Sequence record: LC680885.1
Source of the DNA: Staphylococcus phage S6
Direction: 5' to 3' (one strand)
Length of the DNA stretch: 64,000 nucleotides
Part shown: in pieces, positions 8,291 to 44,355 of the stretch
Position numbering within the stretch: the stretch's first letter is position 1
How the letters are laid out: every line of letters starts with the position of its first letter
Translations under genes and position numbers: made by a program
The notes under the pieces: generated by a model
Seen by the model: only the letters and a program-made list of their open reading frames with translations
Databases searched by the model: none
What the model was told of the DNA's origin: nothing

Positions 8291-8390
8291 TTATTTAACT
8301 TCCTTTCACATATTAAATTTAGAATATTTAAATGTTTGATAAGCAATTTTAACAATAGAATATTAACCTTAATGAAAATATGAATAGGAT

Positions 8391-9422: not shown

Positions 9423-10086
9423 TAATAGAGATCTTTTATCTGAATCAATTAAAAAATTATTAAATGGTAATAATATTCTTAATGAAGCTGAAGATGATGA
9501 AACTAATAATGATTCTTCAGATACTAATACAGATGATACAAGTTCGGAAGATACTACTAATGATAATGAAGAATCTTCAGAAGAAAATTCAGAAACAGAA
9601 GAAGATAATCAAGATGATAGTAATGAAGATGATTCTAGTACAGATGACTCTGAAAGTGATTCAGAATTAGATGATGGTTCAGAAGAGAATTCAGATGAAG
9701 ACAATCCTTTAGACGATCAATCTGAAGAAGAAAATAATGAACCTAAAGAAACTAATTCTGATAAATATTTAAAATTACAAATATTTAATAAATTAAATGA
9801 TTTAATAGATGTTTCATTAAAATTTAAAGATATTGTAAATGAAAAGAATATGGAATCTTTTGATAAAAATGAAAAAGAAAAAATGAGTGAAATTACAGTA
9901 CAGACTTCAAATAATTTAGACAGTTTAATTGATAGTATTAATTTATTTAACAATAAATTTATAAATAATATTGATGCTGATAAATGTGAGAAACTTTATA
10001 AGAAGTTTGAAAATACTTATAATGAAATCTTCAATATTTATTTAAAAGAATACAATAAATTGAATAAAGACAAAAAAAGCAAATAG
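9400..10086 (+). CDS. extremely acidic S/D/E-rich protein (228 aa), scaffold-like (DNA-mimic not excluded)
   Basis: About 100 aa made almost entirely of D/E/S/T/N residues, then a coiled-coil tail. It lies immediately upstream of the putative MCP, as T4 gp22 does. Confidence 0.5.
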   Translation: MGQRMTINNRDLLSESIKKLLNGNNILNEAEDDETNNDSSDTNTDDTSSEDTTNDNEESSEENSETEEDNQDDSNEDDSSTDDSESDSELDDGSEENSDEDNPLDDQSEEENNEPKETNSDKYLKLQIFNKLNDLIDVSLKFKDIVNEKNMESFDKNEKEKMSEITVQTSNNLDSLIDSINLFNNKFINNIDADKCEKLYKKFENTYNEIFNIYLKEYNKLNKDKKSK

Positions 10087-26063: not shown

Positions 26064-26870
26064 ATGATTTTACCAAGTAAAAATCAGCGTGTGTTTGATA
26101 ATAACATCGCTAAGAACAAGTGGTTCTATAATGGGCATATGAATCTTCAAACTCTTGAGTTTGATCCATTCGTAACTGGTTATTCATTCATAGTATGGAC
26201 TAAGATTCCTTCTTGGGTTGAAAAACAATTCCCTGGTTTTAAAGCTATGACTCAAAAGAACTTTAAATCATTCCAAGGTTTAGAAAACATTGAAATGACT
26301 ACAAACGATTATATGCATACGTTTAACGGTAATAACTATCGTACAGCTGCTAGTATTACAAAAGGAAACACTGGTTTCCAAATGACTCACCAAGAATTCT
26401 CTGGTAGTCCAATTAAAAATATGTATCAATACTGGGTATCTGGTATCCGTGATCCTCGTACTGGTATTGCAACTTATCCTAAAATTCATAATTTAGAATA
26501 TGCTGCTAAAAACCATACAGGTGAATTATTATATATTCAAACTCGTCCGGATGCTAATAATACATCTAAAAATAATATTGAATTCGCTGCTTATTACACT
26601 GCAGTAATGCCTACTCGTATTTCTCTTGATCACCATAACTACACTATGGAAACTCATGAAGAAGCACAAATTGAGCAAGACTTTGCAGGTAATATGGAAA
26701 TTTCAGCACGTGTAAATGACTTTGCTAAGTCTAAACTTAATGAAATTTACAGCTTCACTGAACAAGGTATGTTTGATCCATCTGCACCTAAAACTGCTGG
26801 AGATAACTTATCTGATTTCGACTATAATAAAGGTGGAATCACTGGTTCAGGTAACGGAGATCTTAAATAA
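26064..26870 (+). CDS. putative tail tube protein (268 aa)
   Basis: It follows the sheath directly, has an AAAGGAG RBS, and ends at a strong bidirectional terminator. Confidence 0.5.
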   Translation: MILPSKNQRVFDNNIAKNKWFYNGHMNLQTLEFDPFVTGYSFIVWTKIPSWVEKQFPGFKAMTQKNFKSFQGLENIEMTTNDYMHTFNGNNYRTAASITKGNTGFQMTHQEFSGSPIKNMYQYWVSGIRDPRTGIATYPKIHNLEYAAKNHTGELLYIQTRPDANNTSKNNIEFAAYYTAVMPTRISLDHHNYTMETHEEAQIEQDFAGNMEISARVNDFAKSKLNEIYSFTEQGMFDPSAPKTAGDNLSDFDYNKGGITGSGNGDLK

Positions 26871-29128: not shown

Positions 29129-30589
29129 TTATGATAATGCACTTCCAATAGCACTGTTAGGATGAGGGTTTGCTTGAGATTTATAACCGTAAATAGTATC
29201 ATCTATTTGTTGTTTAAATACTCTTCCTTTTAAAACTTGCATACTTCTTGAATACTGATTTTGCATATTAATTTGAGCTTTATCTATAATTGATAGTTGA
29301 TCTCTTCTAATACCTGCTAAACAATCAATATAAGAAATTAAACCTGTATTAAATTTCATACGTTGGAATGATTTTGATGCCATTAAGTTAGGGTACATAT
29401 CTCTTACATTTAGTGAAACTGTTATTTCTCTAGGGAAACCATCTGCTGTCCATGTACCTTCTTCTCCACGAACTATATTCATTGATGTTATAATACCTGT
29501 ATGACATTCAAATCTACCAGGACAGTTTGCTCTAACAATGAATGGTTGTTTATATGAGAAAATAGAATCTTGTAAAGGTAAAGCTAATACCAATAATGAC
29601 ATGAACGGTAAATATACATTTTCAAAAATAGATTGAGGATCTCCATACGCACTATAGAATTTAAATTCTAAGTTATAAGTACGGTCAAAAGTTGAGTTCA
29701 TCCATACATCAGGATAATACATTGATGCTCCATCTAAATTTTCCATAAAGTTACCAACTATACCACCTAATACTGGCATATTTGCAACCATATCATTAAT
29801 GCTATCTTTAATAGATCTTGTAATTTTACCTAAAATAGAAGCTCCTCCAATACGAGCCATTTCTTTTTCTTCACGTATTTCTTGGTTTTTATTATTAATC
29901 TGAGAAGCTATATCAGATTGATTATACTCATGCATTGCTGATTCAGATACACTAGTAGCTTTATCCGCATAATAAGCTAAACCATAGTTTTTGTCATCTA
30001 AAGATCCACCTAAATCAAATGATCCTTTTAATCCCATAGATGCATGTAATTGACTTCCCATGGTTTGTACGTATTTATAATATTCACTCATTTTAGGTTC
30101 AAAACTAACCATACGTCCATCTTTAGTATTACCTATACCAACTAATCCAGCTGTAGTATTTGCCAATCTATCTAAACCTTCTCCAAAACTCCATAATTTA
30201 CCTTCACCCGGTTTACCAAATAGTTTACCGTTCAATTTAGGCATACCTGGCATTATAAATACTAAAGGTAAGTCTAATTCAAATGTTCTTTTATATATTC
30301 TTCTATTAGGGTCATCTAAACTAGAGTAGTACATAGGCATTCCAAATACATCTAGTTCACCTTTAACATTTCTCAATTTAGTTTTATCGGAAGCACCATA
30401 TTCAGAAATATTACGAGTATTACCTGTAGCATCTTTAAATACACCTAAATCATTCTGACTTGGATCATATTCTTGGAAATCATAATCACCTTTAGTTTCA
30501 TCAGGTTTAGGTATTAAAGCAATATCGTCATCACTAATATCTAAAGGTTTCGTACTACCTTTTTCATTTTTATCTTTTTCTTCTGCCAA
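29129..30589 (-). CDS. hypothetical tail-region protein (486 aa)
   Basis: TTG start with an AAGGAAG RBS. It lies downstream of the tape-measure-like genes. Confidence 0.45.
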   Translation of the reverse strand: MAEEKDKNEKGSTKPLDISDDDIALIPKPDETKGDYDFQEYDPSQNDLGVFKDATGNTRNISEYGASDKTKLRNVKGELDVFGMPMYYSSLDDPNRRIYKRTFELDLPLVFIMPGMPKLNGKLFGKPGEGKLWSFGEGLDRLANTTAGLVGIGNTKDGRMVSFEPKMSEYYKYVQTMGSQLHASMGLKGSFDLGGSLDDKNYGLAYYADKATSVSESAMHEYNQSDIASQINNKNQEIREEKEMARIGGASILGKITRSIKDSINDMVANMPVLGGIVGNFMENLDGASMYYPDVWMNSTFDRTYNLEFKFYSAYGDPQSIFENVYLPFMSLLVLALPLQDSIFSYKQPFIVRANCPGRFECHTGIITSMNIVRGEEGTWTADGFPREITVSLNVRDMYPNLMASKSFQRMKFNTGLISYIDCLAGIRRDQLSIIDKAQINMQNQYSRSMQVLKGRVFKQQIDDTIYGYKSQANPHPNSAIGSALS

Positions 30590-30720: not shown

Positions 30721-33700
30721 TTATTTACCTGAAAATACTGGTATAGCAGATCTCACGTCAATATTGAATTGATCTCCATAAGCTCTATTAATAGCTTCTT
30801 GAAGATCAGAATCTCCTTGTGAAGGTCCATTATTATTACCTGGATTGATAATAATAGTACTTCCGTTTCCATTATTACCACCTGTACCAGGATTATATGG
30901 ATCATTAGGATTAACAATGACATTACCATTATTATTATTACCATTAGCTCCATTGTTTCCATTTTGTCCATTATTTCCAGTATTGCCGTTGCTACCATTA
31001 TTTCCATTTGCACCGTTAATAATATCTGGGTTATTTTGTAAATTATCTTTAATGATTTTATCAATTTCTTTATTAATTTCTTTGATAATTACATTACCTT
31101 TAGAATCAACTAAGTCACCTTTATTATTGATAGTTGTGTTATTAAAGATATTATCACCTTTATTAATAGTAGTGTTATTACCTTTAAATGACATTTTTCT
31201 AAGCTGATCTAACATCTTAGCTGTATTCTTATCAATATTACTTGTATGCTTATTAATTTCATCTAAATCCATACGTTTTTGCTTATCAACTTTCATAGGT
31301 CCATTTTTGTAAGACACTGTAGAGTTATTATAATTATTAGTAATATTATAAATATTTCTTACAGTATTATTATCACCTTGAATTGTTTGATGAGTAGTAG
31401 AATTGTTGGTTGTAGTTCCCGGTGAAGTATAGTTATTATTAACTATGGTAGAATTAGTATTCCCCCCATTATTAATTACAGTACTTCCGCCAGAAGAACT
31501 TCCTGATCCTTGTTGTTGAGATTGACCTGGCATTGATGAAGATGATCCATCTTGACCAGTTGTACCAGATTCACCATCTTCTCCATCAGATCCTGATGAA
31601 CCTGATGAGCCAGAGTCTCCTGATTCACCATCTTCTCCATCAGATCCTGATGAACCTGATTCAGATTTCTTCTTACCAGCTTCAGATTTAAGCTTTTCTT
31701 GTTGTTCTTGATCTATTTTTTTGGCTTCTTCGTAATCAATACCATATATTTGAGCGTAACGTTTCATTAAACGATCATTTAATGCTTCTTGTTCTTCTTC
31801 ATCCATACGGTTATCGTCACGTCCAGTAATGGATCCGTACCAAGTACCATTTTTGAAACTATATTCTGAAGCTCCTGGTGAACCTCCTGATTCTGAACCT
31901 TCATCACTTGAGCTTCCGCTATCAGAGCCTCCTTCACCATATCTCATATATCCATCAATTCCCCATTTAGGGTTTTTATATTTATTAGCGCTGTTAATAA
32001 CAACACCATCAACGCCATTAGCTTCTACTTGTTTACCTCCACCAATGTACATTGTAACGTGTTCTATATTATCACATAAAATAATGTCACCTGGTTTAAG
32101 GTCTTTGGGACTTTTAGCTTTAATTTTCTCAAAAGGCGTATCTCCATTCCAGAATGAATGAGTAGTGGCGTTTTTATCCATATCTAAACCAGCTTTTACA
32201 TAAGCTCTAGCTATCAAACTAGAACAGTCAAAAGAATTAGCTCCTTGTCTGTTAGGTTGTGAATATTTTGCACCAACCTGTTTCTTAGCCCATGCAACAG
32301 CTTTATCAATTTTGGCTTTTTGACTTCCGCCACCACCACCGCCTCTTTGTATAGGTGGATTGCCTTTAATTATTCCTGTTCTACGTGAGCTTTTGTTTTT
32401 TCCTGATGTAGATGAAACCATGTTAGAAAATTTACTAATATCATTTGTATCAGCTATAACTGAACCGGCTCCACCTCCACCAGCTCCTCCACCTTTTTTC
32501 TTAGTAGATTTTTTACCAGAACCACTGAATTGTTTGATAAAAGCATTACCAGAAGAAATACGTGACCCTAAAGCAGGAACGCCAGCTCTTTCATATTTAC
32601 TTACCCAAGAAGCAGCTGCTTGTTCTACTGTTTTAGTAGTTTTAAGGTGAGATAAGGCAGCACTTTCTGATCCACTTAATTCTTTCCATAAATAATCTAA
32701 TTGTAAGTCTAAATCAGACCATTTTTTACCTTTTTCTTTAGCATATTTCATTAAACCTTGTCTACGAGTATTATCCCATTGAGCAATACCAATACCATAA
32801 CCAGAAATAGCACTATTAGCTTTTGCTTCATCAAATTTGGCATCTCCTTGAACACGATCAGCTTTCATTCCAGATTCATGTGCAAAGTTACCTAAAACAC
32901 CAGCAGTTTGTTCATCAGAAAGTCCTTTATCTTTAAGGAAATTCCAAATTTTCTCTGCACCTTCACCTTCAATTCCGGCTGCATCACTTCCTGAAGATGA
33001 TGCTGAACTTGATGAAGATGATCCAGAGCCAGCCATAAAACCAGCCATGATATCATTCATCATTCCTCCGAGCTTGTCAAACCAGTCTCCAATAGTGTTA
33101 ACTACTTCTCCACCTGGTTCATTTATATCTAATTTAGATTTTTTCTTTTTCTTCTTACTTAGTAGAGAATAAAAAGGAGACATACGCATCATAGTTTCTG
33201 CTAATTTCTTAGGAGCCTTTTTAAGTTTACTCATAAGATTTTTAGGCATTAATTTATTCATTTGATGACCAATTCTACCCATTACTGATAATGGTGAATT
33301 TTTCATAGCTCCGTCTACATCTTTTTTAATGTCGTCTCTAGTTTTTCCTGCTGATTCTTCTACTTGTTTCTTAGCATCTTTGTTAGCTTTATCTGACATT
33401 CCATTCATTTCAGCTATTTCTTTTTTAGCTCTATCAGATGCTTCACTTTCAATTCCTTCTTGATATGAGCTTAATTCTTCTTTACTAGCTTCAGTCATTT
33501 CTTTACTCATATTTCCCATTTCTTCTTCATGACTAGAGAATTTGTCTTTTAACCATCCCCAACCAGATTTAATTAATCCAGTTCCTCCTTGAAGAAGCAT
33601 AGAAGTCATACCAGTTAAATTACTTAAGCCTTTACCGGCTAATGCTAAAGGAGCCATCATTAACATAGAAGCACCACCGACAACTTTTTTAATCAACCCA

Positions 33701-36603
33701 CCAAAGCCACTTGATTTTTCTTCCATAGCCATATCAGTTTGATCTCCAAAGCTTTTAGCCATACCTGTAGTTTTCTGAACCATGTTCATACCTAAACCAA
33801 ATGCTGGTTTTACAATTGATTTATATAATCCCATTCCAGCTAATCCTAATAAAGGAGTAGAAGCTAATAAAGGATTATCTTTAATAAAACCGCCTATAAT
33901 TGAAGATTTATCTACAGAACCACCCATTTTAGTATCAACTGAAGGATCAACTGCAAAATTTTCTCCACCAGGTTGAGTTGAATCTAATTTCTCTTGTTCT
34001 TTTTTAGTTTTAGAAGGATGATCATTGAATCCAATAATGCTACCTAATGTTTTAATTGGATGTTTTAATGATTCTATAGGATGAGTTATTGTTCTAATAA
34101 TATCTGGTCCAGCTAATGCCAATGATGCAATTTGTCCAATACCAGGTATAGCATTTACTCCAACACGAGCACCTACTTTAGCTCCTGCTTTAAGTAATCC
34201 TTTACCTACAGCTTTTTTAGCACCTTTTCCAGCAGCCATTTTAGCAGCTCTAGCTTTAAGTTTTCCTTTAAGTCTACTACCTGCACCAGCCATTAAAGCA
34301 CCACTAGCAGCAAATTTGCCAGTTAAAGAACCACCCATGCTAGTTACTTTACCACCTAATTTAGTATTAGATAATTTACCTATTTTTTCTTTAACAAGAT
34401 CTTTACCTTTGTTTTTATATTTATCAAATTTTTCTTTGAGATGTTTATTACCCTCAATAAAATCTTGAGCTTCTCCTACTTTATCTGCAAAATCTTTATC
34501 ATCTGAATTGTCAGAAGATTTAGCTTGTCCATTTTCTAAAGTTTGTTCATTAGGAATAATAGTAGATCTATTATCTTCATCTTTAATATTATCATTTCTT
34601 GTATTATCAGATTTTCTACTTTGATTTGTATTAGAAGATGCTGTAGAAGTATTTTTATTTAAAGTTTGCTCTCTAGGATCTATTTCTCTAGAAACATTAT
34701 CATTAGGTTGATTTACATCACTAATTATACCACTTGAATTACTGTCACTAGAATTACTGTTATATCTTTTCTCAGGTATTTTGCTATTTATTCTAGATAC
34801 AATTTGTTTAATTTCACTTATATCTTTATTAACGATATTGAAGTTAATATTATCGTATACTGCATCTTTATTAGTGCTAAGAATACCACTTCCATTTTCA
34901 TTATTTAATTTAGAAGTAATATTTTTAGAAGTACCTTTTCTTTTATTTTCATCATTAAGAGCATTTATAGAACTACTAGATAGTTTCTTCTTAATATCTT
35001 TAGATTCTTTATTTAATTGCATTCTAGTTTTAGTTAAACTAGTTTTAGCTTCTTTATCATTAAATAATTTATCTAGGAGAATATTAAATGGATCATTCGG
35101 GTCATTTGATTTAACCTGATCAAGTTCATTGCTTTTATTAATATTTTTAGAAATAATTTCTTTAATCTTAGATGTAGCTTTATTTTTGTTATCTTCATTA
35201 CTGAAAAGATCAATTCCCATTTCAGAAGCTATATTTTCAAATTCTTTAGTAAAACTAGATTCTTTGATAGTTTTATTAACTTTTTCTTCTATATCATCTT
35301 TAATAGATTTAGAAGTTTTAAATGAACCTGAATCATAGTCATAATGAATTTCTTGACCATCTTCTGAAGTTAAACCAACTATTTTGGATAAATAACCAGG
35401 TATAACTGTATTAAGTGTATTATGAGTTTCCACATCAAAAGCAACTTTTTGATGTCTATCTTTTCTGTTAGCAGTTGATATACCACCAGTTACACTATCA
35501 AATATTTTGTCAATTAATTTACTTTTACCTGATTTGACATCCTCAAGAAGATCATCTCTTCTTTTGTCTCTTTTTCGTTGTTTAGTACCATCTTTATCAT
35601 CTTTACCAAAAGGATTAATTTTTTTATTGGCAAATTTACCGACTGCTTTTTCTATAAAAGTATTTTCATTATTAAGGAAATCAAAAGCTTTACCTTTAGC
35701 TACATCGACTAAACCTAAACTTTTGATACCTTGTTTTTTAGAACCAATAACTTCTTTAAGTAATTCAGTTCCTTGTTTTTTAATAAAGTCTTTAGCTTTA
35801 TCTTTGAATCCTTCTTCTTGAGATCCTTCTAATATACTTGATAAAGTTATATTAGATAAGAATAGATCTTCTAATGAATTACTATTTTTAATTTCAGATA
35901 TATTTTTAATTTTAGTATTCTGTCTAATAGCATTACTAGTTTGAATTAAACCATTTAAATTCTGGAACATACTTTCTCTAATACTATCATTAGCTTCTCT
36001 CATTAAGTTAAGATTATCAATCATAGAAGTAAAACCAGTAGTATTTATTTGAGAAAGATTAGATACAGAAGAAGTTAATAGAGCTGTAGATTTAGCAGAA
36101 GAACCGCCATCATTAATAACTGTTGTGGAAGATACTATTCTAGATTTATTATCATCTTCTTCGTCAAAGTCATCAAATTCAAAATCACCATCTAAAGAAT
36201 CATCTGTGTCAGAATCCATATCTGAAAAACTATCGTCAAAACTAAAATCTTCAAAATCACCACCGACATCCATGCCCATGTTATTGAAGTTTTTTAATGA
36301 TTCTTTATCTTGGATTGTTTCTCCAGTTTTAAATGTATTCTTAGTAGATTCTAAAGCTTCTTTAGATAAATCTTTAGTAGATTCACTTATCTTTTGTAAT
36401 TGTTTTTTCTTTTTATTCTTTAATTCTTTGACAGCCTTTAATGGATTATTCTGATCCATCATACGCTTCATGTCATTAGATTTCATTTTATTTAAATTTT
36501 TATTAAATTCAATATCTATATATTTTCTAGAAGATTTAGAGGAGGAGTTATTTCTAAACTCCTTCTCTATCTTGCTAGTGTTAAATTTCTTATCTCTAGC
36601 CAA
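30721..36603 (-). CDS. giant tape-measure-like virion protein B (1960 aa) with lysozyme-like and NlpC/P60 peptidoglycan hydrolase domains
   Basis: Gly/Ala/Lys-rich tape-measure-like core. AGVLGNFAHESG...GIGIAQWDNTRR is a phage-tail-lysozyme-like block. ANSFDCSSLIARAY...GDIILCDNIEHVTMY is an NlpC/P60 Cys/His pair. The C-terminal tail is G/S/N-rich. Confidence 0.7.
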   Translation of the reverse strand: MARDKKFNTSKIEKEFRNNSSSKSSRKYIDIEFNKNLNKMKSNDMKRMMDQNNPLKAVKELKNKKKKQLQKISESTKDLSKEALESTKNTFKTGETIQDKESLKNFNNMGMDVGGDFEDFSFDDSFSDMDSDTDDSLDGDFEFDDFDEEDDNKSRIVSSTTVINDGGSSAKSTALLTSSVSNLSQINTTGFTSMIDNLNLMREANDSIRESMFQNLNGLIQTSNAIRQNTKIKNISEIKNSNSLEDLFLSNITLSSILEGSQEEGFKDKAKDFIKKQGTELLKEVIGSKKQGIKSLGLVDVAKGKAFDFLNNENTFIEKAVGKFANKKINPFGKDDKDGTKQRKRDKRRDDLLEDVKSGKSKLIDKIFDSVTGGISTANRKDRHQKVAFDVETHNTLNTVIPGYLSKIVGLTSEDGQEIHYDYDSGSFKTSKSIKDDIEEKVNKTIKESSFTKEFENIASEMGIDLFSNEDNKNKATSKIKEIISKNINKSNELDQVKSNDPNDPFNILLDKLFNDKEAKTSLTKTRMQLNKESKDIKKKLSSSSINALNDENKRKGTSKNITSKLNNENGSGILSTNKDAVYDNINFNIVNKDISEIKQIVSRINSKIPEKRYNSNSSDSNSSGIISDVNQPNDNVSREIDPREQTLNKNTSTASSNTNQSRKSDNTRNDNIKDEDNRSTIIPNEQTLENGQAKSSDNSDDKDFADKVGEAQDFIEGNKHLKEKFDKYKNKGKDLVKEKIGKLSNTKLGGKVTSMGGSLTGKFAASGALMAGAGSRLKGKLKARAAKMAAGKGAKKAVGKGLLKAGAKVGARVGVNAIPGIGQIASLALAGPDIIRTITHPIESLKHPIKTLGSIIGFNDHPSKTKKEQEKLDSTQPGGENFAVDPSVDTKMGGSVDKSSIIGGFIKDNPLLASTPLLGLAGMGLYKSIVKPAFGLGMNMVQKTTGMAKSFGDQTDMAMEEKSSGFGGLIKKVVGGASMLMMAPLALAGKGLSNLTGMTSMLLQGGTGLIKSGWGWLKDKFSSHEEEMGNMSKEMTEASKEELSSYQEGIESEASDRAKKEIAEMNGMSDKANKDAKKQVEESAGKTRDDIKKDVDGAMKNSPLSVMGRIGHQMNKLMPKNLMSKLKKAPKKLAETMMRMSPFYSLLSKKKKKKSKLDINEPGGEVVNTIGDWFDKLGGMMNDIMAGFMAGSGSSSSSSASSSGSDAAGIEGEGAEKIWNFLKDKGLSDEQTAGVLGNFAHESGMKADRVQGDAKFDEAKANSAISGYGIGIAQWDNTRRQGLMKYAKEKGKKWSDLDLQLDYLWKELSGSESAALSHLKTTKTVEQAAASWVSKYERAGVPALGSRISSGNAFIKQFSGSGKKSTKKKGGGAGGGGAGSVIADTNDISKFSNMVSSTSGKNKSSRRTGIIKGNPPIQRGGGGGGSQKAKIDKAVAWAKKQVGAKYSQPNRQGANSFDCSSLIARAYVKAGLDMDKNATTHSFWNGDTPFEKIKAKSPKDLKPGDIILCDNIEHVTMYIGGGKQVEANGVDGVVINSANKYKNPKWGIDGYMRYGEGGSDSGSSSDEGSESGGSPGASEYSFKNGTWYGSITGRDDNRMDEEEQEALNDRLMKRYAQIYGIDYEEAKKIDQEQQEKLKSEAGKKKSESGSSGSDGEDGESGDSGSSGSSGSDGEDGESGTTGQDGSSSSMPGQSQQQGSGSSSGGSTVINNGGNTNSTIVNNNYTSPGTTTNNSTTHQTIQGDNNTVRNIYNITNNYNNSTVSYKNGPMKVDKQKRMDLDEINKHTSNIDKNTAKMLDQLRKMSFKGNNTTINKGDNIFNNTTINNKGDLVDSKGNVIIKEINKEIDKIIKDNLQNNPDIINGANGNNGSNGNTGNNGQNGNNGANGNNNNGNVIVNPNDPYNPGTGGNNGNGSTIIINPGNNNGPSQGDSDLQEAINRAYGDQFNIDVRSAIPVFSGK

Positions 36604-36626
36604 TTATTAGTTCCACCTCCTGCTAT

Positions 36627-39600
36627 CTATTTCAATTCTTCTAATAAACGGTCTAATTCTTTAGTAGAAGCTAATGTATTTCTATCTATATTAGCTAACA
36701 TTCTTACTAAATCATCTGAATACCATAATTTTTCATAATCATAGGTATAACCAGAGTTACCATTTTCAATTTTAGAATTTTTATGATTGTTTACAATTTT
36801 ATTATAATGGTTAGTTACTCGGTTTTTACCTTTTATAAATTCTTTATTCACATTTTCATTATTAATGACATTACTTTGTCCATTTTGATAGTTGTTATTA
36901 ACTGTTTTAGTATTTTTACTACCTTGATTATTGACATTGTTATTACCTCTATTAATATTAGAAAAACCACTATTAGCTAATGTTGGTAATTGGAATACCG
37001 GAGGATTTCCGATATTCTTATTATTAGTTATTTGAGATCTTGATTCTTGTGGTTTAGATGGCGATGCTGAAGAATCAGAACTATCTGAAGATTCTTCATC
37101 TCCAGAATCTTCACTTCCAGATCCTGATGAACCTGATCCGGATTCAGATTTCTTCTTACCGGCTTCAGATTTTTTCTTTTCTTGTTGTTCTTGATCGATC
37201 TTTTTAGCTTCTTCATAGTCAATACCGTATATCTGAGCATAACGTTTCATTAATCTATCATTTAATTCTTCTTGCTCGTCTTCATCCATACGGTTATCAT
37301 CACGACCAGTTATTGAACCATACCAAGTACCATTTTTGAAACTATATTCTGAAGCTCCTGGACCTGATTCACTATTTCCTTCTTTATCATCTTCATCACT
37401 TTTAGAAGCAGAAGAACTAGATCCTCCTCCGCCAATAGTCTCTTTAATTGTACTTGCTAAAGCTTTCTTACCTTTACTATTCGGATGAACACCTAAACCA
37501 TCATTTTCAATCATATCAGAACTGGCTTTACTATTCCAGTCTATTACTTTTGAATCTGAACTTTCAATAGCTTTATTAGTTGCTTCAATAATATCAGAAA
37601 TATCAGATCCTTTTCTCTTTTCAGGATCTACATACGTATTAACAAAGTATACATCTGCTTTGTCATACATATCTTCTATTTCTTTAACATTACCTGTAGT
37701 TAATCCTCCATTAGTACCTAATTGCACTATAATTGCATTTTTATCTTTATTGTATTTCTTTTTGTTGGATTCTAATACATTTTTACCATTAGGCGAAGGA
37801 CCTCCACTTGAATAAGTTCTTGAAGGAACTGCATTAATTTGAATTTTACTAACTGATTTTCTTATTTCAGAAGCAGCTCCTGCACCTATGGAGTCACCTA
37901 CCATAAATACTTTATTGTAGGATTTACCTCCACCGCCTCCACCAGTTACCGTTTTAGCTATTTTTCTAATGGCTTCAGGAGTATTACTGAATGGAAATCT
38001 ATCTTTAATAAAATTATCAACTCGTTTTTTAATCTTCTTAATATTGTATATATCTGAATTGTAAATCTTAGTTTTTTCTTTTTCTGCCTTTTCTTCAGTT
38101 TTCTTCTGATTATTTTCTAATTTATTTAAAAGAGCTCTATCATTTCTTACTTCTTTAGCTCTTTGTCTTTTAGCTTCTTTGACTTCTTGTGATTTATAAC
38201 CACCGTCTACCATTTTTACAGTAGGATCAAATGCAGCTCCACCTTTTTTACCTTTTTTAGATTTTCCAGCTTTACTACCTTTGTCTTCATCACTACCGCC
38301 TTTAGAACCTTTTAAAGGAGCTTTAATCCAAGGTGATGGATCTACAGAGTTTTTCTCCATAGCCCAACCGCCTGGTTTACCTTTATTTATTTGGAAGTGA
38401 AGGTGACCTGAACCAGCAGTATTAGCACCAGTGTTACCTGAGATTGCTATAACTTGTCCAATTTTAACTTTATCGCCCTTTTTAACTAATTGTTTAGTTA
38501 AATGCATATACGTACTATAGATGTTACCAGGTGATTTAACTTGAACAATATTACCTCCACCCGGATCGGTGTTTGATCTAATAACTGTACCTTCTACCAT
38601 ACATTTAACTTTTTGACCTGGAAGCATACCTATATCAATACCATAGTGCTTTCCTCCGTTAAATGATAAACCAGAATAGTTACCATATGGTTGCCAAATC
38701 GCAGCACTTGGTATTTTTTTCATCCAAGCACCAACTGTGCCATCTGGTATTTGATTAATAGAACCAGGTACAATTTTCTTAGTATTCATATCTACTTCGC
38801 CAGCTTCACCTGAAACTTCAGGTTCACCGTCTCCACCAGAATCGCCACCACTGGAATTTTTCATTTTAGACATTGCAACAACCATTTCTTCCATTTTAAC
38901 TAAGAAACGACTGAACCAATCTCCGATTTCTCCTTTACCATATTTAGAGAAATCAATTCCGCCTTTAGCTATTTGATACAAACTACCTAGAGGTGTACTC
39001 ATGAACATATCTTTTTGAATATCTTCTTCAGCTTTTGGTCCTGATTTCATTTTATTATCAGTAATTGTTTTAAACATATCTCCACCAACTTTAGCTAGTG
39101 GGAACATAGGAGATGCTCTAAACATTAGTTTAGAAGTACTTAATATTAATCTACCTAAACCTGTTTGATCTTCAGTATGTTTTTCTTCTTTACTTTTAGC
39201 TTCATCTTCTATTTTATCACCAGGATGTTCACCAATTCCGAAGAAACTACCTAATGTTTTAATTGGATGTTTTAATGATTCTATAGGATGTTTAATAGTT
39301 TTAATGATATCAGGAGCCCACATTGCTGCACCAATTACTGGTCCAACAAATGGTATGAATGGTAAGGCTGTTTTCAAACCTGCTTTTAATGCAAATTTTC
39401 CTCCAGCTTTCATTGCACCTTTACCAAATAATTTATTTTTAGCTTTACCTATAGCACCAAAAGCTTTTCCTCCAAGTTTCTTAGCTCCACCGAATAAACC
39501 TTTACCGATAGATTTAGCTCTGTTAAAACCTTTAGAAGCAAATTTACTTATTCCTTTAGTTGCAGCTGAAGCATTCTTTTTATTAAATATTTTAGATATA

Positions 39601-42600
39601 CCACTTTTAGCTACTTTTCCTATAGTTTTACCGGCACTTAATCCTTTTTTAACTAATCCTGCACCTTTACCTATAACCATTTTACCTAAAGATTTAACAG
39701 AAGGTAATTTATCTTTAGCAAATTTTCCAATACCTTTAAATACATTACCTATTTTTTTAGGAGCACCTTTAATACCTCTAAATAATTTTCCTAATCCAAA
39801 TTTTCCAGCTATATTTTTAATTCCGCCACCTATTTTACCTAACATGCCAGGCATACTAGTAAAGAATTTACCTATTCCGCTTGGTAATAATTTAGATAAT
39901 AATTTAGGTCCAAATTTAGCAGCTAAGAATCCTCCAGCACCCAACATTGCAGCGTTACCTAAGAATCCTCCAGCAGATGCTAAGAATCCTTTCTTACCAG
40001 GTTCTAGATCTTTTTTACCATTTTTACCTTTCATTAATGAACCTAATACAGCTGCAGAAGTTCCAGCAAATAAAACTGGCCCCATTTTACTAAAATCAAG
40101 CATACCATTCATCATTTTTTTAGCACCAATGGATTTTTCAGCTTCTCCACCTTTTCCAAAGTTTATATTGCCTCTAATGGATTCAGCAATTTCTTTTTTA
40201 TTGGAACCTGTTATTTTAGACATAACATCTTCCCCAGATTTTCCTGCATCGGCAGTTGAAAGGCCTTGTTTCATTCTTTCTAAAGCTCCAGCATCTTGAG
40301 AATCTTCCATATCTTTTTTAATAGTTGGATCATTGCCAAAAGCAGTTTTAACTAAATCGATTATTGTACTCTTAGCTTTCTTTTCTTTTTCCTCTCTAGT
40401 TAAATCATCTATCGTTTTGCTTGGTTCTTTAGTGTAAGCATCTTTATTAGCTTCATTATTATTAATTGATAATTTATTTAAACCAGGAATATTCTTCATT
40501 AAATCCATTAATGGATTATTATCTATAATACTAGATTGATTTATATTCTGATAAGGATATTCATCATCTTGATCTGGTTGAGTATTTTCTTGAGTTGAAT
40601 TAACTCTACTAGATGCAGAAGAAACCATATCTTTAATAGCACTTGTAGGATTTTCTTTGTATTCTTTAGCTTTACTAACAGCATTAGAAAGACTATTTAA
40701 TTTATCCATTACAGAAGCATGAGCTTCATTATTTCCGTTATTTCCACTTAGAATAGGGAAACTTTTACCTTTATCTATGATACTATTGATCGTATTAACT
40801 TTATTATTAATAAATTCTTTATTATTATTAATATTATCATTACTGAAATTATTATCTAATTTTCTTTCTATTTCTAAGAAAATATTTTTAATTTCTTCTA
40901 AATCACTATTTTCCCAGTTAATATTACCAAAATCTTTAATCTGATTAATATTATCATTATTATTAGATCTAGAATAAGTCGAATTAGATTTATTTAAACC
41001 TTCTATTTCAGTAAATGCCATTATTCTTGAATTATCTTTTTTATCAAGTGTTTTTGAAATAGATTTCTTAATATTGAATAAATCAGTATTAAATTTAGCT
41101 GAATTCTTTTCAAACACTTCAGATAATGACTCAGTATTAACATTTATATTTTTCTGATTAACTATTTCTTTAAGTTTAGAAGTTTTTTGGATAGGTTTGT
41201 CTATTTTAGTTAATTCAGCTAAAACTTCTTTAGTTCTTTCTTCATCATTATCTAATTTAGATAATAATTCTTTACCTAAATAAGTATCTTTAAAATTAAA
41301 TAACGAATCTGATTTAATCTTATCCAAATCTTTTTTCTTAGCCGAACCTCGATTTTCCCAAACACCTTTTCGGTAATTATAGATACTACCTAATTCAGCA
41401 TTATCTGCTAATCCGCCTGAACGACCTTCTTTTTTGGCTATCAAATTACCTTGAAGTCTAGATAAGAAGTCTGGTATAACTTTATTAATAGACGTATGAG
41501 ATTCCATATCAAATTGAACAGGAGTATCTTTTTTACGTTTATTTTTTAGAGAAATTCCACCCTTACCATCACCTAATACTTCTTCTTTAAATTGATCTAA
41601 TCTACCTGAAAGAGCATTTCCTAAATTAGATATATACTTATTATCATTACCAGTTAATCTTTCTAAACCTTTAGTAAGTTTACTATCTTCATCAAGATTT
41701 CTATTAATAAGCATAGAACCTATATTTTGTGGATCAAATCTTTTATTCAATCTATTAAATATATTTTTATTATCGCCTTCAGGATCATAACCACCAATAT
41801 CACCGTAAAGAAGCTTATTAAATGCAATTTTAGCTCCTTGAGTTGCAGCAAATTCAATAGGATTTTTAGCTACACCCATTAACATTGATTTAAGTTGGTC
41901 TCCTGACATCATACCCATTAATAAATTTTCAGGATTAGTTTTCTCATCCAAATATTTTAATAAACTAATATTACCATTCAATATAGAATGTAATTTACTT
42001 TGTTTATTTCTTTTGGTATTTTCTTCCATTATTGTATTTTGATATATACCATCCTGTATTGTACTTAAATTTGATAAAGCTGAATCTACGAGACTGTTAG
42101 TTGCTTGCATTGATAAAGAATAATTATTCAGTGCAATATTTGTTCCAACAAATCCTCTTTGATTTATCTCAGCTAAATTATTCATTGCTACTAGAGGTGA
42201 ATTTGTTATTTTAGATTTCTTTTTATCTGATAAACTAACAATTTCAGATTTAGTCCCATCAGGATTATCAATATATTCTGTTACTGATTCATATTCAGGT
42301 TTTTCATTAGATAATTTTTCATTACTACTTGAAAAAAGATCATTTTCATTAGATTTATTTTTTAGTGTTTTTAATAAATCATTAGTAGAACCTTTAACTT
42401 CAGAAAATTTCTTTAATCTTCTTTCATCATTGTTGAATAATTTTAAACCTGAATCTCCCACTATAGCATCTAATGATGGATTAGATTTTATAAACGCATT
42501 AAAAAGAATACGACCAGTATTTTTAGAAGCATTTTTAATGACAGTTGATTTATTATTATTTTCTAATTGTCTAATATTCTTTTTATTTCTATTATTTTTA

Positions 42601-42605
42601 GCCAA
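36627..42605 (-). CDS. giant tape-measure-like virion protein A (1992 aa) with M23 peptidase and SGNH/GDSL hydrolase domains
   Basis: YGIDIG...H(x)D M23 motifs plus GSGHLHFQ. FMVGDSIGAG (GDS block) and DGLGVHPN (DxxH) indicate an SGNH hydrolase. Gly/Lys-rich tape-measure-like core. It is a paralog of protein B. Confidence 0.7.
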   Translation of the reverse strand: MAKNNRNKKNIRQLENNNKSTVIKNASKNTGRILFNAFIKSNPSLDAIVGDSGLKLFNNDERRLKKFSEVKGSTNDLLKTLKNKSNENDLFSSSNEKLSNEKPEYESVTEYIDNPDGTKSEIVSLSDKKKSKITNSPLVAMNNLAEINQRGFVGTNIALNNYSLSMQATNSLVDSALSNLSTIQDGIYQNTIMEENTKRNKQSKLHSILNGNISLLKYLDEKTNPENLLMGMMSGDQLKSMLMGVAKNPIEFAATQGAKIAFNKLLYGDIGGYDPEGDNKNIFNRLNKRFDPQNIGSMLINRNLDEDSKLTKGLERLTGNDNKYISNLGNALSGRLDQFKEEVLGDGKGGISLKNKRKKDTPVQFDMESHTSINKVIPDFLSRLQGNLIAKKEGRSGGLADNAELGSIYNYRKGVWENRGSAKKKDLDKIKSDSLFNFKDTYLGKELLSKLDNDEERTKEVLAELTKIDKPIQKTSKLKEIVNQKNINVNTESLSEVFEKNSAKFNTDLFNIKKSISKTLDKKDNSRIMAFTEIEGLNKSNSTYSRSNNNDNINQIKDFGNINWENSDLEEIKNIFLEIERKLDNNFSNDNINNNKEFINNKVNTINSIIDKGKSFPILSGNNGNNEAHASVMDKLNSLSNAVSKAKEYKENPTSAIKDMVSSASSRVNSTQENTQPDQDDEYPYQNINQSSIIDNNPLMDLMKNIPGLNKLSINNNEANKDAYTKEPSKTIDDLTREEKEKKAKSTIIDLVKTAFGNDPTIKKDMEDSQDAGALERMKQGLSTADAGKSGEDVMSKITGSNKKEIAESIRGNINFGKGGEAEKSIGAKKMMNGMLDFSKMGPVLFAGTSAAVLGSLMKGKNGKKDLEPGKKGFLASAGGFLGNAAMLGAGGFLAAKFGPKLLSKLLPSGIGKFFTSMPGMLGKIGGGIKNIAGKFGLGKLFRGIKGAPKKIGNVFKGIGKFAKDKLPSVKSLGKMVIGKGAGLVKKGLSAGKTIGKVAKSGISKIFNKKNASAATKGISKFASKGFNRAKSIGKGLFGGAKKLGGKAFGAIGKAKNKLFGKGAMKAGGKFALKAGLKTALPFIPFVGPVIGAAMWAPDIIKTIKHPIESLKHPIKTLGSFFGIGEHPGDKIEDEAKSKEEKHTEDQTGLGRLILSTSKLMFRASPMFPLAKVGGDMFKTITDNKMKSGPKAEEDIQKDMFMSTPLGSLYQIAKGGIDFSKYGKGEIGDWFSRFLVKMEEMVVAMSKMKNSSGGDSGGDGEPEVSGEAGEVDMNTKKIVPGSINQIPDGTVGAWMKKIPSAAIWQPYGNYSGLSFNGGKHYGIDIGMLPGQKVKCMVEGTVIRSNTDPGGGNIVQVKSPGNIYSTYMHLTKQLVKKGDKVKIGQVIAISGNTGANTAGSGHLHFQINKGKPGGWAMEKNSVDPSPWIKAPLKGSKGGSDEDKGSKAGKSKKGKKGGAAFDPTVKMVDGGYKSQEVKEAKRQRAKEVRNDRALLNKLENNQKKTEEKAEKEKTKIYNSDIYNIKKIKKRVDNFIKDRFPFSNTPEAIRKIAKTVTGGGGGGKSYNKVFMVGDSIGAGAASEIRKSVSKIQINAVPSRTYSSGGPSPNGKNVLESNKKKYNKDKNAIIVQLGTNGGLTTGNVKEIEDMYDKADVYFVNTYVDPEKRKGSDISDIIEATNKAIESSDSKVIDWNSKASSDMIENDGLGVHPNSKGKKALASTIKETIGGGGSSSSASKSDEDDKEGNSESGPGASEYSFKNGTWYGSITGRDDNRMDEDEQEELNDRLMKRYAQIYGIDYEEAKKIDQEQQEKKKSEAGKKKSESGSGSSGSGSEDSGDEESSDSSDSSASPSKPQESRSQITNNKNIGNPPVFQLPTLANSGFSNINRGNNNVNNQGSKNTKTVNNNYQNGQSNVINNENVNKEFIKGKNRVTNHYNKIVNNHKNSKIENGNSGYTYDYEKLWYSDDLVRMLANIDRNTLASTKELDRLLEELK

Positions 42606-42683: not shown

Positions 42684-42746
42684 AAAAAAAATAAAATATT
42701 CACCCTAACACAAATAATCCAATTAAGGACTAAATGTGTTAGGGTG
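42684..42746 (-). terminator. intrinsic terminator on minus strand
   Basis: CACCCTAACACA...TGTGTTAGGGTG stem with a U-run on the minus strand (plus-strand A8 at 42685-42692). Confidence 0.55.
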
Positions 42747-42754
42747 AATTAATA

Positions 42755-43423
42755 TTATTTATTCTTGACTACATCTTGTATTTTATTCAATACACTATCT
42801 AAATTTTTAGTATAAACTAAATTAGTAAATAATACATCTAATAAAAATACTATCGTTTTATGAGTGATATAAAATAAATTATTAACTATTTTATCTTGTT
42901 CTTCTTCGCTAATTTCTTCTTTATCTTGATGATATTTTCTATTAGGTAATGAACGTCTACTTAATCCCATATATTCAACTAAATATTCATTTAATTTCGT
43001 TTTAATATCATCAAGTCTATCATAATCACTAATACTCTTATCGTTAGCTAAAAGAAGAGTTTTGTTATAATCGATATTACTTGTTTGAAGAAATTTATTG
43101 TCCATATATTTACTTAATAATGTTGAATTGATAGATATTAAGTAAAGAATAATATCTAATAATTCTTTTGATGCATTATTAATATATTCAAACTTCTGAG
43201 ACTGATTGTATTCAGGATTATTAGTAATTTGATTTATTTCATAATTAAATTCATGAATTTCTTCAACTATTTGAGGTATGAATCTATCTACCATTTGATG
43301 TAATTCCTCATTACCAAAATCGTAACGAGAAATTACATTTACATGATTTATATACATAGCACTTATATCTAATTCAATAGATTCTCTTTTCTTATAAAAA
43401 TGTTTCATTGACAATTCCTCCAT
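42755..43423 (-). CDS. hypothetical protein (222 aa) upstream of tape-measure-like gene (chaperone-like position)
   Basis: ORF with an unusually close RBS (AAACATGGAGGAATTGTCAATG, GGAGG 1 nt before the ATG). It sits 7 nt downstream of the previous ORF's stop. Confidence 0.45.
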   Translation of the reverse strand: MEELSMKHFYKKRESIELDISAMYINHVNVISRYDFGNEELHQMVDRFIPQIVEEIHEFNYEINQITNNPEYNQSQKFEYINNASKELLDIILYLISINSTLLSKYMDNKFLQTSNIDYNKTLLLANDKSISDYDRLDDIKTKLNEYLVEYMGLSRRSLPNRKYHQDKEEISEEEQDKIVNNLFYITHKTIVFLLDVLFTNLVYTKNLDSVLNKIQDVVKNK

Positions 43424-43437
43424 GTTTTTAATTGGTC

Positions 43438-44355
43438 TTATCTAAAACGTTTTTTGTATTCTTCTTCATATTTAGCATTGACATCTGAAACTTTAATATC
43501 TTTACCATCATCTGTTTTAAAGTTATCTTTATCAATTTCTTCACCTTTAATTACTTCTTTATCTTCATTTTCTACTTTAGCTACCATAGCAATATGAGGT
43601 GGTACAAATGATGCTTGTTTAACTGTTTCCATTTTAGCATTATGAATACGACCTTTAATTAATTTACGAGAGAAATGTACATTTTTCATAGTTAATGTTT
43701 TACCTTTAACTAATGCATTTTCTCTAAGTGCATCAATTTCATTAATAATATCACTTAATTCTTTTTTAGAATATCTATTATCTTCTAGATTTGTTACTAA
43801 GTCATTAATAAGTTCTTCTTTAGTATAAGATTTCTCACTGAATTTTTTAACATTTTTCTTTCTACTAGTCATTTTCTTTTTACCAACCTTCTGATTTGAT
43901 TTAGTTTTTGTACTTTGTTTCTTTTCTTTTAATACTGGATTCTTAACTTCTTCTTTAGTCTCTTCTTGCTTAGTTTCTACTTTATCCTCTTCTTGTTTAG
44001 TTTCTTTTTGCTTAATTTCTTTTGCTTTCTCTGGATTTAAACCTGAAGCTGTTACAGTTACTTTATCATAAGAACTTTCTGTTGGAATATCCTTAAGATT
44101 AATTTCAACATCTTTAAGTTCATCTGAATTGATGAAAATTTCTTTTTTATCATAATTAATCTTAATAACATCATCATCTTCAGGAATTAAAACTAAATTC
44201 TTTCTGTCATATTTCTCTGGAATAGTTTCGATATCAAATGTAATTGTATCTCCTTCATATCCTTGTTCTTCTGATAATTTAATCTTAGCTGACTCTAATA
44301 CAGTTAAATCCTCTTTTTCTTTTGTAACTTTCTTTCTTGTAATTGCCATATCCAA
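43438..44355 (-). CDS. hypothetical K/E-rich protein (305 aa)
   Basis: First ORF of the minus-strand tail operon. AAGGAGAG RBS. Confidence 0.45.
   Translation of the reverse strand: MDMAITRKKVTKEKEDLTVLESAKIKLSEEQGYEGDTITFDIETIPEKYDRKNLVLIPEDDDVIKINYDKKEIFINSDELKDVEINLKDIPTESSYDKVTVTASGLNPEKAKEIKQKETKQEEDKVETKQEETKEEVKNPVLKEKKQSTKTKSNQKVGKKKMTSRKKNVKKFSEKSYTKEELINDLVTNLEDNRYSKKELSDIINEIDALRENALVKGKTLTMKNVHFSRKLIKGRIHNAKMETVKQASFVPPHIAMVAKVENEDKEVIKGEEIDKDNFKTDDGKDIKVSDVNAKYEEEYKKRFR

Follow-up and report, generated by a model that had tools for sequence, protein, structure and literature searches.

Two adjacent giant paralogs among the tail genes of Staphylococcus phage S6 carry different sets of predicted cell wall enzymes

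We analyzed 64,000 nucleotides (nt) of DNA from Staphylococcus phage S6 (sequence record LC680885.1), referred to below as the window, with coordinates counted from its first letter, and here describe two adjacent genes, A and B, at positions 30721 to 42605. We consider it fairly probable that A and B are co-transcribed paralogs of a giant tail-associated tape-measure/lysin protein that carry complementary enzymes directed at the cell wall. The initial annotation of this DNA, made from the letters without database searches, had described two adjacent minus-strand open reading frames (ORFs) of 1992 (A) and 1960 (B) amino acids (aa) lying 23 nt apart, and the ORF list and translations confirmed both of them. 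Each gene begins with TTG behind a good Shine-Dalgarno sequence.

We compared the pair across ten genomes of one phage clade (the window, PALS_2, DC4, Madawaska, MarsHill, LY01, SA1, Machias, PB50, and AH12) and found that A and B are each intact and full length in all of them; protein A is 94 to 98% identical to its orthologs in PALS_2, DC4, Madawaska, and MarsHill. A long hairpin followed by a T-run, a candidate terminator, lies between A and a 222-aa gene upstream of it (Table 1), at the same place where a terminator is annotated in Madawaska and MarsHill, and was not listed by a simple terminator scan. Since this terminator-like hairpin precedes A and no terminator was seen between A and B, the two genes probably form one transcription unit of their own. 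A scan for sigma-70 promoters returned 71 sites, fewer than the 89.8 found in shuffled sequence, and is uninformative for a phage with its own RNA polymerases.

The paralogy of A and B, with several shared modules, had been proposed from the letters, and BLASTP and hhalign comparisons bore this out while adding more blocks than had been listed. In an hhalign comparison of two profiles, each built from seven orthologs, A and B matched with a probability of 100% (E = 4.9e-62) over 1517 aligned columns. The confident blocks follow the same order in both proteins, with A 66-386 matching B 68-410 in the N-terminal part, A 1058-1129 matching B 789-864 and A 1163-1238 matching B 914-1029 in the middle, and A 1746-1825 matching B 1573-1652 and A 1891-1978 matching B 1710-1795 in the C-terminal part. 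BLASTP recovered the HPIESLKHPIKTLG block (E = 2e-17), an N-terminal region (25% identity over 480 aa, E = 2e-9), and a C-proximal module, called the C-module below, in which 68 of 71 residues are identical (E = 1e-38). Judged by these alignments, A and B are collinear paralogs. The individual motifs that had been pointed out are all present, namely, an N-terminal motif (FDMESHTSINKVIPDFLSRL in A, FDVETHNTLNTVIPGYLSKI in B), the HPIESLKHPIKTLG motif common to both, and the near-identical C-module, which is also a 228-nt repeat in the DNA. Outside the shared blocks, identity between the paralogs drops to only ~25%, which makes the duplication an old one.

Both proteins contain Gly/Ala/Lys-rich regions (A 800-1100 and B 700-1030), and segments with a Kyte-Doolittle value above 1.5 number one in A (residues 1079-1097, transmembrane-like) and none in B. 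Close to these regions lies the HPIESLKHPIKTLGS block, which in A and B forms a 120-nt DNA repeat with 76% identity. The KHPIKTLGS core of this block is unchanged in both paralogs of all seven aligned genomes, and the full 15-mer HPIESLKHPIKTLGS is kept except in gene B of Madawaska and LY01, where one or two of the first five residues are changed. The peptide maps approximately to 39250-39294 in A and 34030-34074 in B, within surroundings that have diverged to 57% identity, and could be a binding or processing site.

The two copies had been predicted to carry different enzyme sets, and this held, with M23 and SGNH domains in A and lysozyme and NlpC/P60 domains in B. The M23, lysozyme, and NlpC/P60 assignments all scored above their Pfam thresholds (Table 1). 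The best matches of the A M23 domain in the PDB were an M23 peptidase (5kqb, E = 1e-22), S. aureus LytM (4e-19), and lysostaphin (3e-17). LytM and lysostaphin are Gly-Gly endopeptidases; by sequence, the A domain is of the lysostaphin/LytM type, with a predicted Gly-Gly specificity. The B lysozyme domain matched phi29 gp13 (PDB 3csq) and is ~35% identical to the corresponding domain in the tape measure proteins of K-like myophages, and the B NlpC/P60 domain matched an NlpC/P60 structure (8er5), the hub-hydrolase of diffocin, a contractile bacteriocin (8v3w), and CwlO. The M23 HYGID and HLHF motifs, the Glu-Ser motif of the lysozyme (GNFAHESG), and the catalytic Cys and His of NlpC/P60 (FDCSS and HVT) are kept in ten of ten genomes. 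Since both copies are intact and these three sets of motifs are retained throughout the clade, selection appears to act on both genes. Of the four-enzyme wall-degrading set that the initial annotation had proposed, the four domains stand, and the description of the SGNH domain as a bond-cleaving peptidoglycan hydrolase does not, as domains of this kind are of the esterase/acetyltransferase type.

The A M23 domain is also 46 to 49% identical to M23 domains inside the tape measure proteins of S. aureus siphophages. A recent capture from a siphophage is unsupported, as this identity is, by eye, no higher than that to the Machias-type ortholog. The part of A that holds its enzymes (residues 1250-1750, ~37350-38850) is the least conserved among orthologs, at 0.54 to 0.75 identity compared with >0.9 in the flanks, and indels in the linker before the SGNH domain set the PALS_2 group apart from the other genomes.

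The SGNH domain of A proved to be real by its match to OatA in both sequence and fold, though it lies under the Pfam threshold. A phmmer search of the PDB matched it to the C-terminal domain of S. aureus OatA (OatA-C; PDB 6wn9/6vjp) with an E value of 5e-10. An AlphaFold (AF2) model, made from an alignment with 30 relatives, had a predicted local distance difference test (pLDDT) score of 93.2 and a predicted template modeling (pTM) score of 0.90. The top five Foldseek matches of this model were all OatA C-terminal domains from either S. aureus or S. pneumoniae (E = 4e-9, TM score of 0.69 to 0.81), followed by PatB, GDSL esterases, sialate O-acetylesterases, and the peptidoglycan O-acetylesterase Ape1. 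According to the model, A 1555-1730 has the SGNH alpha/beta/alpha fold. In an alignment of 31 family sequences, the GDS, GxN, and VH motifs are invariant; all are present in A, where GDS, GTN, and VH align to Ser453, the G(T/V)N motif, and His578 of OatA, respectively.

Acetyl transfer by OatA is favored by an invariant Val/Ile of Block II, whose replacement by Gly or Ala lowers transfer 5- to 10-fold and slightly raises esterase activity (PMC5697884). This transfer-favoring position is Pro in A and Ala or Ser in its relatives. On the basis of this Pro, of the fusion partners described below, and of the lack in phage protein A of a membrane acyltransferase domain that could supply acetyl groups, we infer that the SGNH domain is an esterase rather than a transferase. 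S. aureus OatA-C (6vjp, 6wn9) is the best match by sequence and fold, but it differs from the A domain in being an acetyltransferase fed by a membrane domain, in having the transfer-promoting Val where A has Pro, and in having DxxH where A has DGLGVH. The S. aureus phage tail protein phi11 Gp44 is a precedent for an SGNH domain in a phage tail, and O-acetyl groups on muramic acid matter for phi11 adsorption; unlike the A domain, the Gp44 domain resembles a carbohydrate esterase (2WAO) and not OatA (PMC4876445).

The principal argument that the A SGNH domain and the B lysozyme may act on the same substrate comes from the recurrent fusion of such domains. When 1.84 billion representative proteins were searched exhaustively, 162 SGNH relatives emerged, of which the nearest, besides the Machias-type ortholog, were secreted multidomain proteins with 36 to 44% identity; OatA-type proteins, in which the domain is C-terminal in proteins of ~600 aa, were more distant. 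Among the 30 nearest relatives, a Phage_lysozyme2 domain was also present in 24, M23 in 7, and CHAP in 5.

The secreted relatives that combine SGNH, Phage_lysozyme2, and CHAP or M23 domains come almost exclusively from Candidatus Saccharibacteria/Patescibacteria (51 loci, L013-L063). At one of these loci (L018), the SGNH gene (7989-9737) has PrgI-like and VirB4-like type IV secretion genes as neighbors, a setting suggesting that its SGNH-lysozyme product is a wall-breaching enzyme of that secretion system. The two closest nonphage SGNH domains (44% and 39% identity) form the N termini of P0002 (1518 aa) and P0007 (1662 aa), giant proteins in which a multi-transmembrane region and a long coiled coil are also present; the part of P0002 outside the SGNH domain matches large hypothetical proteins on Staphylococcus plasmids of 55 to 65 kb.

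We found one giant homolog each in AR9 (gp203, 1925 aa, annotated as a tail tape measure protein), BpSp (gp263, 1797 aa), and LPJP1. In BpSp and LPJP1, the giant gene is followed by a homolog, by sequence match, of the 486-aa virion gene that lies downstream of B; the AR9 counterpart of this gene, the intron-split gp204, is linked to it by the annotation of Machias and not by sequence. LPJP1 also keeps homologs of the 721-aa, 222-aa, and 305-aa genes, and homology to the upstream genes is seen in AR9 as well. Because AR9, BpSp, and LPJP1 are single-copy in the same gene order, the tandem duplication is, on this comparison, specific to the staphylococcal jumbo-phage lineage, in agreement with the claim that A and B derive from a duplicated protein. 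The giant proteins of these outgroups carry a VgrG3-like glycosidase, to which LPJP1 adds NlpC/P60, as in the layout of B, and in BLASTP against LPJP1, B is closer than A to the single-copy proteins (E = 4e-13 and 4e-6, respectively). By these comparisons, B keeps the ancestral cassette of glycosidase plus NlpC/P60, and A is the copy that acquired M23 and SGNH. The LPJP1 homolog (locus L012, 10912-15498) is annotated as three coding sequences, with a stretch of ambiguous residues at the end of the first; this split is probably an assembly problem and not real.

The C-module has a history of its own. Its two copies are a 228-nt direct repeat with 89% nucleotide and 96% amino acid identity. In a neighbor-joining tree of 14 copies (210 nt, 500 bootstrap replicates), A and B copies clustered by genome lineage, with support of 77% for Machias and PB50, 68% for SA1, and 82% for the PALS_2 group with LY01, and an A-versus-B split appeared in 0 of 500 replicates. 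Third-codon positions gave the same clustering by genome. In contrast, four control shared blocks showed the A-versus-B split in 100% of replicates. Since the C-module copies group by genome and the control blocks split by gene, we conclude that the module has been homogenized between paralogs within lineages by gene conversion while the rest diverges independently; the bootstrap support is moderate because the tract is short. A search of representative proteins found no C-module relatives outside the clade; by eye, a weak resemblance could be made out at the C terminus of LPJP1. A model of the C-module and C terminus of A (residues 1740-1992) had a mean pLDDT of 44, with ~80 in two C-module helices and a terminal helix of A predicted with low confidence; it suggests that the C-module is a beta-hairpin with two helices, with fair confidence for the helices only. 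The last part of A (residues 1891-1992) is 0.84 to 0.94 identical among orthologs.

The N-terminal motif connects A and B to a wider family. In an alignment of eight sequences, its invariant columns, at approximately residues 350-420, read V-x-F-D ... V-I-P-x-x-L-[SA]-[KR]-[IL] ... Y-x-Y-x-x-G, and the motif of A and B could be aligned in AR9, BpSp, and LPJP1. A profile of the motif scored 47.7 bits with phiR1-37 g083 and 29.7 bits with PhiPA3 gp213. With the AR9 motif as the query, tblastn found one giant gene in phiR1-37 (g083, "tape measure tail fibre protein," E = 1e-11) and one each in jumbo phages of Fusobacterium, Vibrio, Erwinia, and Pseudomonas, with lysozyme-domain or tail fiber protein as the usual annotation. 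AR9 and BpSp also match PHROG 3201, a "tail fiber protein" profile of 2408 positions. PhiPA3 gp213 lies between homologs of gp180 and gp182 and is, by this position, the ortholog of phiKZ gp181, which a review lists among virion structural peptidoglycan hydrolases and as a putative trimeric needle (PMC5380687). These matches place A and B, by sequence, in a giant tail-associated lysin family of AR9/PBS1/phiR1-37/phiKZ-type jumbo phages, myophages with multisubunit RNA polymerases of their own. Compared with a family size of 1800 to 2550 aa and a wall glycosidase in the C-terminal third, B has both (1960 aa, PF18013), and A has the size (1992 aa) but carries M23 and SGNH in place of the glycosidase.

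Comparison with known systems brings out what is shared and what is particular to the pair. The giant proteins of AR9 (gp203), PBS1 (gp95), and BpSp (gp263), annotated as "tail tape measure protein" or "lysis domain protein," resemble A and B in motif position, size (1797 to 1925 aa), a wall glycosidase near the C terminus, and a downstream 486-aa gene (by sequence in BpSp and by annotation in AR9), but they are single-copy, have a VgrG3-like PF21277 domain instead of PF18013, and lack M23, SGNH, and NlpC/P60. Proteins phiKZ gp181 (PhiPA3 gp213) and phiR1-37 g083 are likewise giant (2300 to 2550 aa), tail-associated, and equipped with a wall-glycosidase domain, whereas they belong to phages of Gram-negative hosts, are single-copy, carry a single enzyme, and share with A and B only a short motif; gp181 is a virion-borne peptidoglycan hydrolase by experiment, according to a review (PMC5380687). 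The muralytic tape measure protein is an established concept, exemplified by T5 Pb2 (cited in PMC5380687 and in the BpSp proteome paper). T5 Pb2 and the tape measure proteins of S. aureus siphophages and Twort-like myophages share embedded wall hydrolases with A and B, but they are unrelated in sequence outside the enzyme domains, and each phage has one tape measure gene. Like B, phi29 gp13 and the type IV secretion hydrolases of Gram-positive conjugation unite a PF18013-type lysozyme and an endopeptidase within a single protein that breaches the wall, as does the hydrolase CwlT of an integrative and conjugative element; unlike A and B, all of these are small (300 to 800 aa) secreted or tail-knob proteins whose kit is not split over paralogs.

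From their position among tail morphogenesis genes, with sheath, tube, and baseplate wedge genes flanking them and the single LPJP1 homolog in the same neighborhood, we infer that A and B are virion proteins with tape-measure and ejection roles. A number of results weigh against this placement. Neither protein matched a tape-measure family in Pfam or NCBIfam, their PHROG "tape measure" matches cover only the M23 and lysozyme domains, their N- and C-terminal pieces alone retrieved nothing relevant from PHROG, and the N-terminal profile gave only chance-level matches to solved structures. The link to the phiKZ branch is thin, consisting of a short motif with modest scores. Under the rule of ~0.15 nm per residue derived from lambda-type phages, the 1992 aa of A would correspond to 299 nm, or ~250 nm without M23 and SGNH. 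Measured tails are 233 nm in MarsHill, 237 nm in S6, and 201 ± 29 nm in PALS2, so that tail length is compatible with a ruler of ~2000 aa without being diagnostic or proof of one. The only proteome of the clade, a shallow analysis of the DC4 virion by liquid chromatography-mass spectrometry with 15 proteins, contains neither A nor B, and the BpSp proteome paper does not mention gp263; the BpSp, DC4, PALS2, and SA1 papers report no virion detection of a homolog. As to expression, structural genes are late in the SA1 transcriptome.

The host, judged from the matches of the region to known phages, is Staphylococcus aureus, whose wall is thick, pentaglycine-bridged, and O-acetylated, and the guess that the enzymes point to a thick or complex peptidoglycan target fits this wall. 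We propose that A and B would be tail components, lying in the tube lumen or at the hub and probably incorporated through their shared end modules, and would be expelled upon tail contraction, when their hydrophobic glycine-rich segments could help to form a path through the envelope and their enzymes would open the wall locally at complementary points. M23 would cut the pentaglycine cross-bridge, NlpC/P60 the stem peptide, and the lysozyme domain the glycan strand; the SGNH esterase of the PALS_2-like subgroup, to which the window belongs, would remove the 6-O-acetyl groups that OatA places on N-acetylmuramic acid and that block lysozymes. A more specific proposal, which we put forward only tentatively, is that the SGNH domain is a virion-delivered 6-O-acetylesterase of the OatA branch that lets the B lysozyme cut and that A and B form an obligate mixed complex, which the gene-converted C-module and the invariant HPIESLKHPIKTLGS peptide would keep in register. 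If this were true, the pair would be a phage countermeasure to wall O-acetylation split over two duplicated tail proteins, and the coupling of SGNH and lysozyme would also account for the proteins that breach the wall in Saccharibacteria and are encoded in their type IV secretion clusters.

If roles were divided between the copies, A alone would be the length-determining tape measure in the tube and B a hub or tip lysin serving as a puncturing device, with no mixed complex, and we regard this as unlikely. Depositors do annotate A as a tape measure protein and B as a tail lysin, with Korn et al. reasoning alike, the ancestral enzyme layout survives in B, which also resembles the outgroup proteins more closely than A does, and each copy has something of its own, a Gly-X-Y tail-fiber-like C-terminal extension in B and a long Gly/Lys-rich run (residues 800-1100) in A. 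Yet in all ten genomes the two copies are of almost equal length and retain one collinear set of blocks, the single-copy relatives must do both jobs with one protein, and the gene-converted C-module and invariant HPIESLKHPIKTLGS suggest that the same partner is contacted by both. The location of the genes, beside the tail sheath and tube and with the baseplate wedge ~6 kb upstream, argues in turn against A and B being internal head or ejection proteins (like T7 gp16 or the phiKZ-type bolus) that form a trans-envelope channel for DNA and the virion RNA polymerase. This phage group does carry in its virions an RNA polymerase that has to get into the cell (DC4 proteome, AR9 annotation), hydrophobic glycine-rich segments combined with wall enzymes are also found in podophage ejection proteins (PMC5380687), and PHROG assigns the downstream 486-aa gene to "head and packaging"; nevertheless, the literature cited by PMC5380687 assigns phiKZ gp181 to the baseplate or tail, tape measure or tail fiber protein is the annotation given to relatives, and we found no evidence of head-protease-type processing, which together make a head origin quite improbable. 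A recent duplication with one redundant copy now in decay is scarcely credible: besides the duplication itself, only the low conservation of the A enzyme region speaks for it, and it is contradicted by the conservation data, as both copies are full length in ten genomes spanning ~50 to 60% protein divergence, the catalytic motifs are kept except those of SGNH, and the duplication is old.

The SGNH domain may not work as an esterase at all. As a relic, or as a module for binding or structure, it would leave a functional set of three enzymes, a reading that we consider possible if doubtful. The Ser and His are kept in five of the ten genomes (the window, PALS_2, DC4, Madawaska, and MarsHill), and both are lost in the other five, where GDS has become GDD (LY01) or GDE (SA1, Machias, PB50, and AH12) while fold residues stay, so esterase activity cannot be essential to the clade. 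Moreover, A has DGLGVH instead of the canonical DxxH spacing, with the Asp of OatA aligning to a gap, and the Pfam Lipase_GDSL score of 17.5 bits falls below the threshold of 23.6. Against a loss of function in S6 itself, the window and its four closest relatives hold all family-invariant residues, the GLGVHP motif is the norm among the nearest SGNH relatives, and the model is confident and OatA-like. In OatA, the Ser and His are essential, whereas loss of the Asp (D575A) leaves ~10% of the esterase activity (PMC5697884).

The gene pair and three of its four domains were already known from near-identical phages, where the genes are PALS2_173/172 in PALS_2, 00260/00259 in DC4, and 087/086 in both Madawaska and MarsHill. 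Korn et al. (2020), who discussed helical content and transmembrane predictions for candidate tape measure proteins, reported "two potential tape measure proteins," one of which was annotated as tail lysin on account of its PF18013 and PF00877 domains; the DC4 paper noted the M23 domain, and the SA1 annotation calls both genes tail tape measure proteins. As a discovery, the pair itself adds little, having been deposited and discussed for phages 96 to 99% identical to the window. In the papers examined on these phages, we found no mention of an SGNH/OatA-like domain, explicit paralogy, single-copy outgroups, or gene conversion of the C-module. The increments offered here are modest and consist of the OatA-like domain, its link by fusion to the B lysozyme, the loss of its active site in five of the ten genomes, the dating of the duplication, and the gene conversion of one module. 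The OatA-like SGNH domain is seemingly unreported, and a predicted de-O-acetylase that could sensitize S. aureus walls to muramidases would be relevant to enzybiotics; the active-site loss provides a natural contrast for the role of the domain. The pair also illustrates how a tail-internal protein may diversify by duplication and enzyme cassette swap while docking surfaces and a converted module are kept.

Table 1. Positions of the features described in the text, in window coordinates, with protein residues given in the first column
Feature	Position	Strand	Remarks
Gene A, 1992 aa, derived paralog	36627..42605	-	Database annotation "tape measure protein"
N-terminal shared region, A 66-386	41448..42410	-	Family motif VQFDMESHTSINKVIPDFLSRLQG at A 363-386; hhalign block
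Gly/Ala/Lys-rich core, A ~800-1100	39306..40208	-	Hydrophobic glycine-rich segments; from composition and hydropathy
Hydrophobic segment and HPIESLKHPIKTLGS block, A 1058-1129	39219..39434	-	57% identical to B 789-864
Peptidase_M23, A 1319-1409	38379..38651	-	Pfam 76.9 bits (threshold 28.7); HxxxD (HYGID), HxH (HLHF)
SGNH domain, OatA-C type, A 1555-1730	37416..37943	-	GDS (Block I), GTN (Block III), GLGVHP (Block V)
C-module, A 1746-1825	37131..37370	-	GASEYSFKNGTWYGSITGRDDNRMDE...QEQQEK; DNA repeat copy 37134-37361
Asn-rich stretch and conserved C-terminal end, A 1891-1992	36630..36935	-	Ends …NIDRNTLASTKELDRLLEELK; 38% identical to B 1710-1795
Gene B, 1960 aa, ancestral-like paralog	30721..36603	-	Database annotation "tail lysin"
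N-terminal shared region, B 68-410	35374..36402	-	Motif VAFDVETHNTLNTVIPGYLSKIVG
HPIESLKHPIKTLGS block counterpart, B 789-864	34012..34239	-	
Phage_lysozyme2 (PF18013), B 1216-1359	32527..32958	-	Pfam 122.8 bits (threshold 28.2); catalytic-type Glu in GNFAHESG
NlpC/P60 (PF00877), B 1455-1541	31981..32241	-	Pfam 43 bits (threshold 23); Cys in FDCSS, His in EHVTMY
C-module, B 1573-1652	31648..31887	-	DNA repeat copy 31651-31878
C-terminal block and B-only Asn/Gly-rich extension with Gly-X-Y triplets, B 1710-1960	30724..31476	-	
Long hairpin and T-run, candidate terminator	42685..42750	-	Between 222-aa gene and A; read from sequence
222-aa and 305-aa genes	42755..44355	-	Upstream of A; conserved upstream neighbors of giant gene
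486-aa virion structural protein gene	29129..30589	-	Directly downstream of B; PHROG 20401, 3e-89
Tail sheath gene	22758-25910		Flanks locus
Tail tube gene	26064-26870		Flanks locus
Baseplate wedge gene	48211-50439		Flanks locus, ~6 kb upstream

The start of B is annotated differently among genomes. In PALS_2, B (PALS2_172, locus L002, 3001-8748) is given a downstream ATG, a length of 1915 aa, and the description "conserved domain protein, PknH_C," whereas Madawaska, MarsHill, and the window favor the upstream TTG with its strong ribosome-binding site, giving 1960 aa. In the C-terminal part of B, short tandem DNA repeats with periods of 9 and 27 nt (30934-31008 and 31558-31667) encode Gly-X-Y-like triplets (GNN/GSN… and SGS/DGE…), and this part matches PHROG collagen-like minor tail and tail-fiber families. 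The Ser/Gly/Asp Gly-X-Y run at B 1649-1688 scored 20.7 bits with Pfam Collagen, below the threshold of 27.2, and is of low complexity; for these two reasons, we dropped a collagen domain and recorded only the Gly-X-Y periodicity. Opposite the Gly/Ala/Lys-rich core of A, an antisense ORF of 331 aa with an ATG start (39304-40299, plus strand) most likely reflects the biased composition there rather than a gene.

The DNA identity of the region to PALS_2-type phages, the relatives of the tail sheath, and the flanking tail genes show the region to be, by sequence, part of a known clade of AR9-related jumbo myophages infecting staphylococci. Positions 30721 to 42605 are 98.8% identical in DNA to PALS_2 and 95.9 to 97.4% identical to DC4, Madawaska, and MarsHill; LY01, SA1, PB50, AH12, and Machias are 77 to 88% identical over 14 to 85% of the region. 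The sheath is 99.7% identical to that of PALS_2, with remoter relatives in Listeria phage LPJP1 (48%), Bacillus phages BpSp, AR9, and PBS1, and Yersinia phage phiR1-37. The G+C content of the window is 19 to 36% in 2-kb windows.

Upstream of A, the 222-aa and 305-aa genes match LPJP1 genes 100 and 103 and AR9 gp201 by BLASTP. A family search with these two genes returned no matches and no tail-chaperone signature, and a programmed frameshift was not searched for. Downstream of B, the 486-aa gene is the conserved partner of the giant gene in all relatives and is homologous to BpSp gp264 and LPJP1 genes 95/94. In Machias, the homolog of this gene is annotated as two exons split by a transposase gene (locus L003, 20766-23325), for which a note by the depositors cites an HHpred match to CasX.

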